NCBI GenBank assembly: GCA_002395235.1
Contig: DGWK01000008.1
Span: forward strand, 34,174-98,173
Source: Lachnospiraceae bacterium UBA4260
Lineage (GTDB): Bacteria > Bacillota > Clostridia > Lachnospirales > Lachnospiraceae
Direction of reading: 5' to 3'
DNA: 64,000 nt
Numbering within the stretch: the stretch's first letter is position 1; each line of letters begins with the position of its first letter. The notes below the pieces were generated by a model. That model searched no databases, was not told where the DNA came from, and was given only the letters and a program-made list of their open reading frames with translations. The position numbers and the translations under genes were made by a program. Positions 26,160-30,116 of this stretch are shown piece after piece.

Positions 26160-29100
26160 CTATTTCTTTCCTTCGACCATCAATTTGAACGCTTCGAACG
26201 GATTTACATGGCTGCCTTCGCTTTCCAGAGTCTTCATATATTCTTTGAATGCCTTGAATCCTTCCCCGTATTCGTCTTTTCTCGCCATGAGTTCCTCTTC
26301 CATAGCATCTGCATAATCCGACTCGCCGAAATCGCGCATGGCACTTACTTCCACATAGCTGGCATGACCTTCCATGGCCACGAGGCCTCCACCCGGTCCG
26401 AGCTTATTCAGCTTCTTCAAGCCAATCTCCTCAAACTGCCAGTAATGCGTCAGCTCGTGGATCAGTGTCGACTGCACTGTGTTTCTAGGGCCGCGCGCCT
26501 CAATCCACAGCGCCTTCTTTCTGCCTCTGTCCTTGCGTTCACAGAAACCGAGCACTCTATCGTAAGGGCTGCCCTTCCCTATTCTCTTACGAATCGCTTC
26601 CGCGCTCGCGAATCGAAGATGCAGATTCTTCGGACGTCTGACTCCGTAGTGATAATACATATTATTTACTACCGTCTCATATAGCTGCCGGATCTCATCC
26701 TCCTGCCGGATCATCTGATTTTCACAGTCTCTGCAGATGCGGCGTCCGTCGTGCATCTCCTTCCAGAACACTGTCGGTTTACCGCAAAAAGAGCATCTAA
26801 TCCCGCCGGGGATATCGGGGGCCGTGGCAAAGCCTTCAGATTCCTCAAGCTTGGGCAGAAAGCTTTCACAGAATGATTCCAGCTCTGCAGAGGCGAAGAA
26901 CGCGGGCAAGGTATCCAATCCCAGATGCAGGAAACCGCCTTCTGTTTTTCCTGCCGGATCTGATGAAGCAAACCGCCTGTTATACCATTTCAGATAGTTG
27001 TCTACGATTCGGAACACTTTTATCCTGTTTTGATACAGACTTGAGATCATTCCCAATTCGATAGCGCTGTATTCAACAATATACAGCGATATTTTTTCCT
27101 CATCAGTGGAACTGTCTGCGATCTCTTCCATTTTTCCCGGACGGATGAAGGGGACTATACTATGGATCTTCTCCTCCGCTGACGCAGCGGCCGTGTCTTT
27201 AAAGAGTTTCGTCCAGTAATCATCTGACGCGTCAAATCGGGTGATGACAAACAGGTTCATATAACTGTCCGGGAACAGCGTTTTGAACAACTCCTGCATC
27301 ATGAACGCCAGAAGAAGGACCATTTGTTCTGCTTTATCTCCGGCCACCCTGCATGGGATCCGAATCTCCAGCATCTGAATGCTGTTCTTAACCTCTACGA
27401 GATCATTTCCTTCTTTTCCGTAGCGGTCATAAACTCTGCTGAGGGACATGCCCGCCTCAGCACCAAGATTGATTCCCCTGTCACTGCTCCAATAACCTTT
27501 GATAATTCGTTTGACATTGTTTGCCAGGTAGACGTTAAAATCAAGTACATCGTAATCCACACAATGATCAACGATCTGTCTGTTTCCGATTTCAAATTCA
27601 CTCGACTGATAATAGCTTTTGTGGCTTTCGGAAGCTACGTTTTCCGTGTAGACGATTCCATCCTCGATATTGAGTACATTGCGGAGAACACCTTTGATAG
27701 AGACAACCTGGTCTCGCAGGAAATAATTCATTACGTTATCTCGCAGTACAGGGATCTCTTCCACAGTCTCAGATGCCTTATGGTTCAGCTTAACAAACGA
27801 AGTCTGCCTGACCAGCTCCTTTTTAATCGCCTCGTTAATGAGGGTGATCGTCACCTGTCTCTCATATTCGTCAGTTGCCGCATTAAAGACAGTTTCTTCG
27901 CTGAAGTGGAAATGCTCATAGATATTATGATTTCTCTTTTTATCTTTGAGCACACTATTTAAAGCTACCCGGAGCAGATTGCCTATTCCTTTATAGTCCC
28001 AACCGTATTCTCTGCTTCTCTCCATGACATCTTTTTCCAGCATACCTGTATTGGCCATCTGCAGAAGAAGTGCCTGGAAGCGGCTGTGGTCGAGGTTGGA
28101 ACGCCAGCCGATCAAAGGCGCATAGTCGTTTTCTCTCCGGATCAGTTCTTCAATATTTTCAGCAAAATAATCTCTTAAAAGATACTGAGGCGAAACGATG
28201 TGGATCAGGGTACCTTTTTTTCCTCCGTATTTTAACCAGTTCCACAGTGTATTATACAGATTGAAATGATCATCATACAGAATGATCATATCCAGGTTTT
28301 CTTTCTCCAGGATATCTGAATAGTCATTGATCCGGATCCACTGAGAATAATCAGTATCTCTTCTTAAAAACCGGCGTATTTCCCTCTGATTGGCGCTCAA
28401 TGCCTTTCTATATGTCAAAAGAGGTTTGCTCTCTCCTGCATATACATGGACAGAAGGAAATTCCACGCCGACCGCGATCAGGGCTAACGTCATAGAAACG
28501 CCAATGTATTCCGAAAGGTCGCCGCCTATCCCCAATCGCCTCTGCGTTCTGTAATACCCCTCTTCGGCCCAGGCCATCACATAAGTTTCCACCTGATTGC
28601 CGACGTTCTTAAATGGGGTGATATCTTTACCGATGTAAGTTCCGAAACTTGCTTCCAGCGTCGGACTCTCCACTTCAGATACCAGCACATACTGATACTC
28701 TTTCTCAAACTCCTTCGAAATTCTCGAAAATTCGGAGAAGATCATTTCTTTGTGAATATTGCTGTATGCGCTGAATGTGACGGCTCTGTCGATCACTATC
28801 ATCTTCAGATTTTTGAAAAAGTCTTTTCTTTTGGCCAGCAGTTTGTAGCTGACAAGATCCTGAAAACCTATGACAAGAATATGGATCGTCTCATTGTTAG
28901 CAGCTTTGTCGCGGCCGCCCACGCTCCACATACACGTAACTCTATTGATTCGTTCAAGTCTCTCATCGACAATCCTTTGAAGTTCAACCGCACGCTCGTT
29001 GTCCATGCAGAGGATCAAAAAAGTGTCCCCTTCCGTGCAATAATAATTCATATACGCGCACAGATAAGTCAGGATCTCACCCTGCAGATAATCTCTGATA

Positions 29101-30116
29101 CTCACGGAAGAATCATTAAGAAGTTCTACAAGGACATTATTGTACTCTTTGTTCGTTCGAACCCCGGCTTCTCTGAGCTGATTGCTGATGATCTCCAGTA
29201 CATGAGGCTTTTTGCACGCTTCCTGCTGCGAGTTGGTAACGCCGTTATATTTCAGCCCGCTGCTCTGCATACTGACCATTCGAGGCTCATAGGACTTTAA
29301 TAATACTTTTGTTCCTCCAAAATATGCTAAATAGAGATTAAAAAGGTTTTTCAGCTGCCCTCTGAGCTCCATATCTATGTCGTCACTTTGAAATGAATTT
29401 CCGCCTAAATTCATATTGTGCTCAAGGAAGAACTGGATCTGTTCAAACAGGAGGAATCCTGCTGAAGGCAGCATATACCATCCCCATGTGATCTTCCTTG
29501 TCATCTCAGCCAAAGGTTTGTCTGCACCGATCACGATGATACTGACTCCGACAACCTCTATAACACCCAGAAGGATAAAAGCATTCTTCATACTGCGGAT
29601 CCAGTGGTACCAGACGCTGCCTTTCGCGTTGACCTCGTATTCATATCCGCCTTCAGCTTCCGTATACGCAAGATCTGACAAGAGCCACGGAAAATGAACC
29701 AGCTTTTCTGTGAACGTGCCGTCCTTTACACTGATAAAACTTCTGTTGCGAAAAAGCAGCCGAATAATACCGAGCACCAAATCCGCAAGCAGAATGAAAA
29801 ACAGATTCATCAATATGATCAGGAGCAGCATATAGATCAGCTCATAATTTCGCTCAGGCGTCATCGTGTTAAAAAAGCCGGTCAGAAAAGAATTACTGAT
29901 CACACGGTCAAGTCCTTGAAGAATGTAAGGAAGCATGAGCCGGTTTCCCGACAACAAGATCAGTACGGCAAGTACAACGATCAGTCTGCAGTGCAGATAT
30001 CTTTCATTGATATCGTATTTTATAAATTGGATCGGAATATGCGCCACTATCAGAGCACCTGTACATATCAGCAGAAAAAGCAGATAATGTGCAAGCATCA
30101 TAATCAATTCATTCAT
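26160..30116 (-). CDS. Multi-TM protein with degenerate SF2 (DEAD/DEAH-like) helicase core, Cys4 Zn finger and HExxH (DA1-like) metallopeptidase
   Basis: N-terminal hydrophobic helices; motif remnants FLILCMDNERAVEL (Ia), ILVIGFQDL (Ib), LKMIVIDRA (II), no GKT; C-terminal CSFC...CRDC then STLIHELTHYWQ...EGHASY. Confidence 0.6.
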   Translation of the reverse strand: MNELIMMLAHYLLFLLICTGALIVAHIPIQFIKYDINERYLHCRLIVVLAVLILLSGNRLMLPYILQGLDRVISNSFLTGFFNTMTPERNYELIYMLLLIILMNLFFILLADLVLGIIRLLFRNRSFISVKDGTFTEKLVHFPWLLSDLAYTEAEGGYEYEVNAKGSVWYHWIRSMKNAFILLGVIEVVGVSIIVIGADKPLAEMTRKITWGWYMLPSAGFLLFEQIQFFLEHNMNLGGNSFQSDDIDMELRGQLKNLFNLYLAYFGGTKVLLKSYEPRMVSMQSSGLKYNGVTNSQQEACKKPHVLEIISNQLREAGVRTNKEYNNVLVELLNDSSVSIRDYLQGEILTYLCAYMNYYCTEGDTFLILCMDNERAVELQRIVDERLERINRVTCMWSVGGRDKAANNETIHILVIGFQDLVSYKLLAKRKDFFKNLKMIVIDRAVTFSAYSNIHKEMIFSEFSRISKEFEKEYQYVLVSEVESPTLEASFGTYIGKDITPFKNVGNQVETYVMAWAEEGYYRTQRRLGIGGDLSEYIGVSMTLALIAVGVEFPSVHVYAGESKPLLTYRKALSANQREIRRFLRRDTDYSQWIRINDYSDILEKENLDMIILYDDHFNLYNTLWNWLKYGGKKGTLIHIVSPQYLLRDYFAENIEELIRRENDYAPLIGWRSNLDHSRFQALLLQMANTGMLEKDVMERSREYGWDYKGIGNLLRVALNSVLKDKKRNHNIYEHFHFSEETVFNAATDEYERQVTITLINEAIKKELVRQTSFVKLNHKASETVEEIPVLRDNVMNYFLRDQVVSIKGVLRNVLNIEDGIVYTENVASESHKSYYQSSEFEIGNRQIVDHCVDYDVLDFNVYLANNVKRIIKGYWSSDRGINLGAEAGMSLSRVYDRYGKEGNDLVEVKNSIQMLEIRIPCRVAGDKAEQMVLLLAFMMQELFKTLFPDSYMNLFVITRFDASDDYWTKLFKDTAAASAEEKIHSIVPFIRPGKMEEIADSSTDEEKISLYIVEYSAIELGMISSLYQNRIKVFRIVDNYLKWYNRRFASSDPAGKTEGGFLHLGLDTLPAFFASAELESFCESFLPKLEESEGFATAPDIPGGIRCSFCGKPTVFWKEMHDGRRICRDCENQMIRQEDEIRQLYETVVNNMYYHYGVRRPKNLHLRFASAEAIRKRIGKGSPYDRVLGFCERKDRGRKKALWIEARGPRNTVQSTLIHELTHYWQFEEIGLKKLNKLGPGGGLVAMEGHASYVEVSAMRDFGESDYADAMEEELMARKDEYGEGFKAFKEYMKTLESEGSHVNPFEAFKLMVEGKK

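Follow-up and report, generated by a model that had tools for sequence, protein, structure and literature searches.

An ATP-dead helicase-fold protein with a zinc ribbon and a putative zincin peptidase in an FtsZl1-type gene cassette of a Lachnospiraceae bacterium

Genomic setting and domain architecture

A stretch of 64,000 nucleotides from Lachnospiraceae bacterium UBA4260 (GenBank assembly GCA_002395235.1, contig DGWK01000008.1, positions 34,174 to 98,173; hereafter the window) carries on its reverse strand a single intact, ATG-started open reading frame of 1318 codons, without an internal stop, whose product belongs to family B12 of the vWA/FtsZl1 operons. The 1318-residue protein combines four to five N-terminal membrane spans, a body with the fold of a superfamily 2 (SF2) helicase, a single zinc ribbon of C4 type and, at the C-terminus, an HExxH…E zincin domain (Table 1). 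Its gene is the fourth of a five-gene cassette and belongs to a same-strand run inside a low-GC stretch; GC content is 0.43-0.48 at ~24-38 kb of the window, compared with 0.51-0.58 in the flanks, and the cassette lies in this island. Counts from a promoter and terminator scan were at the level of shuffled sequence and uninformative. The original prediction, made from the DNA letters, described a membrane-tethered pseudo-helicase fused to a LIM-like zinc finger and a DA1-like metallopeptidase, and every sequence feature it named (VSIRDYLQGEI, MIVIDRAV, CxxC…CxxC, HELTH and hydrophobic spans) is found in the translation.

A helicase fold resembling MrfA

The helicase-fold body was recognized through structure prediction. 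An AlphaFold2 model of residues 231-1318, built on 44 family sequences, has a mean predicted local distance difference test (pLDDT) score of 81.5 and a predicted template modelling score of 0.76, and consists of tandem domains of alternating beta-strands and alpha-helices. These include the tandem RecA-like folds on which the original prediction depended. A Foldseek search of the PDB with the model returned 267 matches at E <= 0.001, and every one of the 50 listed is an SF2 helicase or a complex containing one. The best match is chain A of the DUF1998 helicase MrfA (6ZNP; E 5.5e-22; about 900 columns; TM-score by target 0.59, with a range of 0.59-0.64 over the ~900 aligned columns). Other SF2 helicases, among them Brr2, Hel308, Lhr, Pol theta and DbpA, match at about 1e-7 over about 560 columns only, which indicates that the resemblance to MrfA reaches past the RecA pair into accessory domains of MrfA/YprA type; in MrfA these comprise winged-helix, oligonucleotide/oligosaccharide-binding, connector and MZB domains (domain map, PMC7797055). 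In the predicted structure, the body of roughly 800 residues appears to keep the whole YprA/MrfA-type architecture, with two RecA-like domains followed by accessory domains. A helicase was not found by sequence with Pfam, NCBIfam, PADLOC, or phmmer and hmmsearch against PDB sequences, the sole trace being a non-significant DEAD match (E 0.11).

Family-wide loss of the ATPase motifs

The motifs through which helicases bind and hydrolyse ATP are absent from this fold throughout the family. In the AlphaFold2 model the P-loop position is the strand-loop-helix at residues 337-361, and the Walker B position is a strand ending at residue 442. In none of 31 homologues, which share 21-71% identity, do motif positions I, II and VI carry a Walker A, a DExH or an arginine finger. 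The motif II position (MIVIDRAV at residues 439-446 here) is variable (D, G, A, S and others) and never DExH, while the strand that would carry SAT in motif III reads S-E-V or similar. At motif VI, placed by secondary structure and by the canonical RecQ/Ski2-type motif (…YD…QxxGRxGR), WNWLKYGG stands here and the homologue consensus is YDxxxNxYNxLWxWxKYGG, again without an arginine finger. The same motifs are missing from a sister subfamily of 1340-1440 residues. Across 208 family proteins there is no positional Walker A; the few GK[ST] strings precede the loop or fall at unrelated sites, and there is one lone DExH-like string.

Selection on the gene was estimated by the Nei-Gojobori method against a 97.5%-identical metagenomic allele. 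The ratio of non-synonymous to synonymous substitution rates (dN/dS) is 0.11 for the whole gene (68.5 synonymous and 28.5 non-synonymous differences), 0.04 for the RecA-like core (19 and 3) and 0 for the zinc ribbon and peptidase (10 and 0). Since the motif loss is family-wide and purifying selection is strong, the gene encodes a conserved pseudo-helicase and is not a decaying copy. The helicase-fold module is thereby shown to be ATP-dead: no family member retains motif I, II or VI, which serve to bind and hydrolyse ATP. This upholds the original prediction that a domain lacking Walker A, and reading DRAV in place of DEAH, is probably catalytically dead, and extends it to the 31 homologues and the sister subfamily. 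The contrary outcome it had envisaged, with active motifs kept in homologues and lost here by decay, did not materialize. A functionless gene, whether a decaying helicase or a chance resemblance, would agree with the failure of every sequence method to recognize a helicase, but is virtually discounted by intact full-length reading frames in hundreds of clusters, the core dN/dS, the retention of the same motif-position substitutions across 21-71% identity and the Foldseek E-value to MrfA. The pseudogene reading in particular is refuted by dN/dS and conservation.

Zinc ribbon and zincin peptidase

The helicase-fold body is followed by a zinc ribbon with four invariant cysteines (C1108-x2-C1111…C1128-x2-C1131, reading CSFC…CRDC, with CxxC-16-CxxC spacing), near which family conservation reveals no further conserved cysteine or histidine ligands. 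In an AlphaFold2 model of the excised ribbon and peptidase (pLDDT 88), the ribbon forms short beta-hairpins; searches with hidden Markov models and PDB sequences give weak matches to eL43, ClpX-C4, A2L and double zinc ribbons. A LIM domain pairs two neighbouring zinc fingers and needs eight Cys/His ligands within roughly 55 residues. The predicted C-terminal zinc-binding CxxC..CxxC motif ahead of HExxH…E is therefore present, with invariant cysteines, but the label 'LIM-like' does not hold, as the conserved ligands are these four cysteines only and the matches are to single zinc ribbons.

The remainder of the excised model has a zincin layout, comprising a three-stranded sheet, the HExxH helix and then a helix bearing E-G-H, which comes 25 residues after HELTH. 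H1220, H1224 and H1251 are kept in >=90% of members, and E1221, E1249 and G1250 in all. The Pfam family DUF6782 (putative metallopeptidase; cut-off 27 bits) scores 22.5 bits with the full protein and 27.3 bits with the excised domain, and matches 29 of the 31 members at E <= 0.01 (best 2.5e-7); other Pfam matches in this set are BSP (six members) and M78 (four). At the same threshold none of the 31 members matches the DA1-like (PF12315), DEAD, Helicase_C or MZB families, and PF12315 has no match to the excised domain at E <= 10. Fold searches with the ribbon-peptidase model point to a Colwellia lipoprotein (3O0Y), Spartan (6MDX), M61 peptidases and phage SprT- and IrrE-like proteins, all weakly (E >= 0.003). 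The best E-values, 0.015 in the PDB and 0.003 in BFVD, are all to zincins, and neither database yielded a close solved or viral relative or a DA1 match. A search for stand-alone homologues of the ribbon and peptidase gave just two fragments of B12 genes.

To judge from its residues, the zincin is apparently intact, the HExxH…E set being present here and in most relatives, in keeping with the HELTH..E peptidase arrangement originally proposed. Membership of the DA1 family was not confirmed, given that PF12315 is unmatched and DUF6782 is the prevailing match. The layout is analogous to that of plant DA1, in which a zinc-binding module likewise precedes a HExxH zincin with a downstream Glu-Gly. 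However, the B12 protein has a single C4 ribbon in place of LIM domains, lacks ubiquitin-interaction motifs, and is a bacterial, membrane-anchored protein with a helicase-fold body. HExxH histidines are lost (RELTH, RELAV, HELIR, YELVR and others) in relatives P0006, P0028, P0083, P0090, P0143, P0151, P0159, P0170 and P0198, which keep the rest of the domain.

Table 1. Features of the B12 protein and of the surrounding genes, in coordinates of the window.
Feature	Residues	Position	Strand	Evidence and remarks
Whole gene (P0001), cassette gene 4	1318 aa	26160..30116	(-)	Family B12 of vWA/FtsZl1 operons; about 55 full-length homologues; 807 clusters at 50% identity; cassette order vWA-like, FtsZl1, B5, B12, transglutaminase-like
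N-terminal membrane region	1-231	29424..30116	(-)	Hydropathy and conservation
RecA1-like domain	~295-482	28671..29234	(-)	AlphaFold2 secondary structure; Foldseek
Motif I (Walker A) position, VSIRDYLQGEI	337-347	29076..29108	(-)	Strand-loop-helix, no GK[ST]; family consensus SVxIxDxxxGEF
Motif II (DExH) position, LKMIVIDRAV	437-446	28779..28808	(-)	Neither Asp nor following Glu conserved in family
RecA2-like domain	~483-662	28131..28670	(-)	Conservation, AlphaFold2, Foldseek; invariant W516, Q525, G539, D615, N619, R648
Motif V/VI position, DMIILYDDHFNLYNTLWNWLKYGGKK	608-633	28218..28295	(-)	'YD' strand end kept; QxxGRxGR replaced by WxWxKYGG
Helicase-associated accessory region	~663-1090	26847..28130	(-)	Helical (winged-helix-like), beta-rich and alpha/beta parts (AlphaFold2, Foldseek)
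C4 zinc ribbon	1104-1135	26712..26807	(-)	C1108, C1111, C1128, C1131 invariant
Putative zincin (gluzincin-type) peptidase	1139-1318	26163..26702	(-)	Probably DUF6782-related; AlphaFold2 pLDDT 88; weak zincin fold matches
HELTH	1220-1224	26445..26459	(-)	Putative zinc ligands and catalytic Glu; E1221 invariant
E1249-G1250-H1251, on next helix	1249-1251	26364..26372	(-)	Candidate third zinc ligand; E, G invariant
Cassette gene 1	886 aa	35848..38508	(-)	Signal peptide, MIDAS-like 'DDSSS', acidic ectodomain, C-terminal span aa 731-749, short cytoplasmic tail
Cassette gene 2	1182 aa	32279..35827	(-)	FtsZl1-type tubulin-like GTPase; Tubulin_2 (PF13809) E 1.8e-43
Cassette gene 3, 'B5' position	704 aa	30113..32227	(-)	Two-span hairpin aa 524-571; stop overlaps B12 gene start by 4 bases
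Cassette gene 5	343 aa	25107..26138	(-)	Transglutaminase-like lipoprotein, lipobox LAGC
YbjN-family gene	135 aa	24503..24910	(-)	Directly downstream of cassette, ahead of AAA-FtsH-like gene
AAA-FtsH-like gene	1176 aa	20816..24346	(-)	Downstream of cassette; soluble protein, two AAA+ modules and M41 (FtsH-type) peptidase domain

Membrane region and topology

Membrane tethering, as originally predicted, is borne out by a hydropathy scan, with four clear spans at residues 7-25, 45-63, 93-111 and 179-197. A fifth segment, residues 209-231, is weakly hydrophobic and under the span threshold here, reaches span scores in relatives, and is the best-conserved stretch of the N-terminus (pattern WYMLPxAGYxLxEQxQxFLE). 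R39 and P217 are invariant in the N-terminal region, and H42, R44 and Q226 nearly so. Counts of lysine and arginine in the loops favour an N-out, five-span, C-in arrangement, in which the body and peptidase would face the cytoplasm. The charge of the body is near neutral and slightly net negative (138 K+R versus 158 D+E), resembling the tubulin-like and B5 proteins of the cassette, unlike the strongly acidic ectodomain of the surface protein and the lipoprotein. Cysteine content was dropped as a topology marker, since even the lipoprotein partner contains 2-3% Cys.

Fusions of a transglutaminase-like domain to B12 bodies (P0128, P0169, P0185 and P0188) bear on the orientation of the protein. 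Beyond the peptidase, P0128 has a K-rich flank and then a span; an acidic linker leads on to a transglutaminase-like domain with homology to the adjacent lipoprotein (BLASTP 2e-15), a layout that fits a body inside and a transglutaminase outside. In P0185, the transglutaminase-like domain replaces the zinc ribbon and zincin entirely. The opposite orientation, in which an N-out protein with four spans would place the body and peptidase outside the cytoplasmic membrane, explaining the lost ATP motifs by a lack of ATP there and putting zincin and transglutaminase together on the surface, is highly improbable. It draws on the lipoprotein nature of the transglutaminase-like partner in all loci checked, on three representatives that fuse this domain without an intervening span, and on the subthreshold fifth segment of the 1318-residue protein. 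Yet it conflicts with the K-rich flank and span of P0128, with the cytoplasm-like charge balance of the body, with the C4 zinc ribbon and the signal-peptide-less tubulin-like partner, which both point to the cytoplasm, and with the conservation and span scores of residues 209-231.

The five-gene cassette and its distribution

Four of the five cassette proteins are membrane-bound or lipid-anchored. The first gene occupies the vWA-gene position of FtsZl1 operons; Pfam and PDB sequence searches gave no match that would confirm its 886-residue product as a vWA protein, which, if it is one, is too diverged for current models. Nine loci spanning 18-74% identity were compared, and all nine have the first four genes in the same order, including a Tubulin_2 protein, with a B5/B12 junction that is overlapping or <=13 nt. 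The transglutaminase gene comes next in seven of the nine; one contig ends, and in the other locus, from a Lachnospiraceae metagenome-assembled genome (L005:14298-24308), a 1185-residue FtsK/SpoIIIE-like gene takes its place and overlaps the B12 stop. There it is followed by two proteins of ~95 residues, an ADP-ribosyltransferase (ART)-type toxin and a TIR protein, an arrangement that looks like a secretion- or toxin-type add-on.

TIR genes on the cassette strand occur in three of the nine loci, and other flanks carry NADAR-DarT1, ART toxin or HSP70 genes. Two loci (L003:17004-23870 and L009:666-1997) contain same-strand TIR genes, one encoding a ThsB-type TIR with a beta-propeller, together with a NADAR-DarT1 gene and an M50 peptidase. 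The YbjN and AAA-FtsH pair downstream of the cassette also stands beside a 70%-identical cassette (L001) and is absent from the other loci, and is therefore probably not core. In one metagenome (L014:1-1000), a 97.5%-identical gene copy has two small opposite-strand genes upstream in place of B5, reflecting either a rearrangement or an assembly join.

Searched against 1.84 billion representatives, a profile of the helicase-like B12 core hits 807 clusters (50% identity), and 470 of these reach E <= 1e-30. Homology to the sister subfamily extends along the whole of its length (hhalign probability 100, E 1e-85, 1190 columns), whereas in plain sequence searches the ~1300-residue and long subfamilies share only the C-terminal 15-17%. 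Within its own genus, 2 of 25 genomes carry the cassette, as do 3 of 300 genomes from elsewhere in the class, each of these three in a different family; its occurrence is rare and patchy, and it is dispensable. This patchy, island-borne distribution and the frequent TIR and toxin neighbours make a conflict role, in defence or of abortive-infection type, likelier than a housekeeping one.

A housekeeping function, in which B12 would serve as processing protease and anchor of a cytoskeletal or membrane-remodelling machine that gives shape to membranes or vesicles and has no part in conflict, accords with the prediction drawn from the abundance of membrane proteins in FtsZl1 operons (Makarova and Koonin 2010, Biol Direct 5:33), with the membrane association of four of the five cassette proteins, with the lack of a match to any known defence model and with the 70%-identical copy that has the same flanking genes. 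It is nonetheless unlikely, as wide retention would be expected of such a machine, while the cassette is found in about 1% of class genomes and 2 of 25 of the genus, on a low-GC island and among variable neighbours that include TIR, ART and DarT-type genes.

Relation to known systems

The order vWA, FtsZl1, B5 and B12 was listed for Ruminococcus lactaris and Bacteroides capillosus, with B12 entries of 1418 residues (RUMLAC_01526) and 1435 residues (BACCAP_04121; Makarova and Koonin 2010, Additional file 5). The present gene order is identical, and the protein is membrane-associated, has a zinc finger and a zincin, and directly follows the vWA, FtsZl1 and B5 positions. Its homology to the listed proteins runs through the length-matched 1340-1440-residue subfamily, which aligns with it over the full length; the protein itself belongs to a shorter (~1300-residue) B12 subfamily. 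The 2010 table mentions neither the ~800-residue helicase-fold body nor the loss of ATPase motifs, and the transglutaminase-like fifth gene is unlisted there. The vWA, tubulin and GTPase systems have since been reinterpreted as conflict systems (Kaur, Burroughs, Iyer and Aravind 2020, eLife 9:e52696). The cassette resembles those GTPase-centric systems in being a Firmicutes cassette in which the tubulin-domain protein is extended at length at its C-terminus and an apparently vWA-like protein is extracellular and bound to the membrane, and B12 loci, like them, have TIR-type effectors nearby. In contrast, the window has no GAP1-type GTPase, FNIII-repeat or HSP70, and B12 and the transglutaminase-like lipoprotein stand in their place.

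Proteins of the MrfA/YprA group (Bacillus subtilis MrfA, PDB 6ZNP; DrmA/B, DruE, Dpd and Hrq1) resemble the B12 protein in predicted structure over ~900 columns, across the RecA pair and accessory domains, and likewise have a four-cysteine zinc site C-terminal to the helicase body. In MrfA, however, the site is formed by four closely spaced cysteines in a coil between helices (PMC7797055), as opposed to the beta-hairpin ribbon with CxxC-16-CxxC spacing seen here. The B12 protein further differs in lacking Walker A, DExH, the arginine finger and a Pfam MZB match, in being membrane-anchored, in bearing a fused peptidase, not a nuclease, and in having a tubulin-like GTPase as partner. In a 2025 survey of the YprA family the words tubulin, FtsZ, peptidase, transmembrane and vWA do not occur, and its five uses of 'inactivated' concern nuclease or GTPase domains (10.1101/2025.09.15.676423). 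A literature search found no paper on such a membrane-anchored dead-helicase/zincin protein. New relative to the searchable literature are the ATP-dead helicase-fold body and its YprA link, the coupling to transglutaminase through fusions and the occasional loss of peptidase ligands.

Proposed mechanism

BlaR1 and MecR1 (M56 gluzincins) are polytopic membrane proteins whose cytoplasmic HExxH…E zincin is thought to cut a cytoplasmic target on an outside signal. By analogy, the B12 protein, also a membrane protein with a probably cytoplasmic HExxH…E zincin, is predicted to work like a membrane sensor-protease. No sequence or fold match to BlaR1 was found and the domain order is different; B12 lacks a penicillin-binding sensor and BlaR1 a helicase-fold body. 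In the composite model that we favour with about even confidence, B12 would dock at the membrane and act there as scaffold and protease subunit of the five-gene vWA-like/FtsZl1/B5/B12/transglutaminase system, which would span the envelope and probably be related to conflict. The dead helicase body would then be no motor; situated at the inner membrane face, it would offer a rigid platform, or a clamp, for binding a partner. Candidate partners are B5, the tubulin-like polymer, the surface protein's cytoplasmic tail and nucleic acid. Engagement of the partner may position or free the tethered zincin, which would cut a protein at the inner membrane face, while the lipoprotein transglutaminase-like enzyme would act on the outer face.

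Several observations weigh against this model. The link to MrfA is one of predicted structure alone: among the 807 matches of the core profile in 1.84 billion representatives, the 150 listed are all of B12 type and offer no bridge to an active helicase, hhalign of the core profile with one YprA-type helicase from relatives gives a probability of 0.5, and Pfam MZB (PF09369) is unmatched in the protein, its genome and the 31 members, while control genomes do match. Of ~175 relatives with the C-terminal domain, about 10 lack one or both HExxH histidines, and a 68%-identical relative reads RELTH instead of HELTH; proteolysis would therefore not be the output in every lineage, with a minority keeping the domain without catalysis. 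The three span-less transglutaminase fusions, whose stand-alone counterpart is a lipoprotein, speak against a body inside the cell and make the predicted topology tentative. In another metagenome a 70%-identical copy has the same genes on either side, which indicates that the island is not freshly mobile. Finally, no model of PADLOC-DB 2.0 matches any of the five cassette proteins, the neighbouring AAA-FtsH gene being the sole match (IetA-type ATPase models).

SprT/Spartan and IrrE-like zincins are regulated by DNA or DNA-damage signals, and they are among the nearest folds to the B12 peptidase (Spartan, 6MDX). This is one of the points in favour of the sensor-gated protease of the original prediction, here in the form of a YprA-like dead ring that would close on RNA or single-stranded DNA, such as that of a phage entering at the membrane, and switch the zincin on. 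MrfA, the closest fold, forms a closed ring around single-stranded DNA with the same domain set (PMC7797055), active YprA-family helicases are the core of DISARM, Druantia and Dpd defence (10.1101/2025.09.15.676423), and neighbours of defence type are present. Gating by nucleic acid, though plausible, is nevertheless unlikely, as the body is slightly net negative, the proteins strictly partnered with it are surface proteins and a tubulin-like GTPase and include no nuclease or methylase, and the peptidase fold matches are weak (E >= 0.003). A bolder combination, somewhat less probable again, is a tubulin-based immune system spanning the envelope, in which the dead YprA-type ring would sense foreign nucleic acid or a signal from the surface vWA-like protein and free the zincin to cut the tubulin-like polymer or another host target, leading to growth arrest or membrane remodelling. 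If this were true, a helicase fossil would be the sensor of a cytoskeleton-driven defence.

Significance

B12 is the largest membrane subunit of the FtsZl1 tubulin-like operons listed in 2010, and its reading as a pseudo-helicase with a zincin provides a concrete and testable handle, offering a binding platform, a catalytic residue to mutate and partners to pull down. It also draws a link, through predicted structure, from FtsZl1 operons to a helicase family that is central in several anti-phage systems. More broadly, the retention of a helicase fold over hundreds of lineages after the loss of its nucleotide-handling motifs bears on how motors may be turned into scaffolds or sensors.

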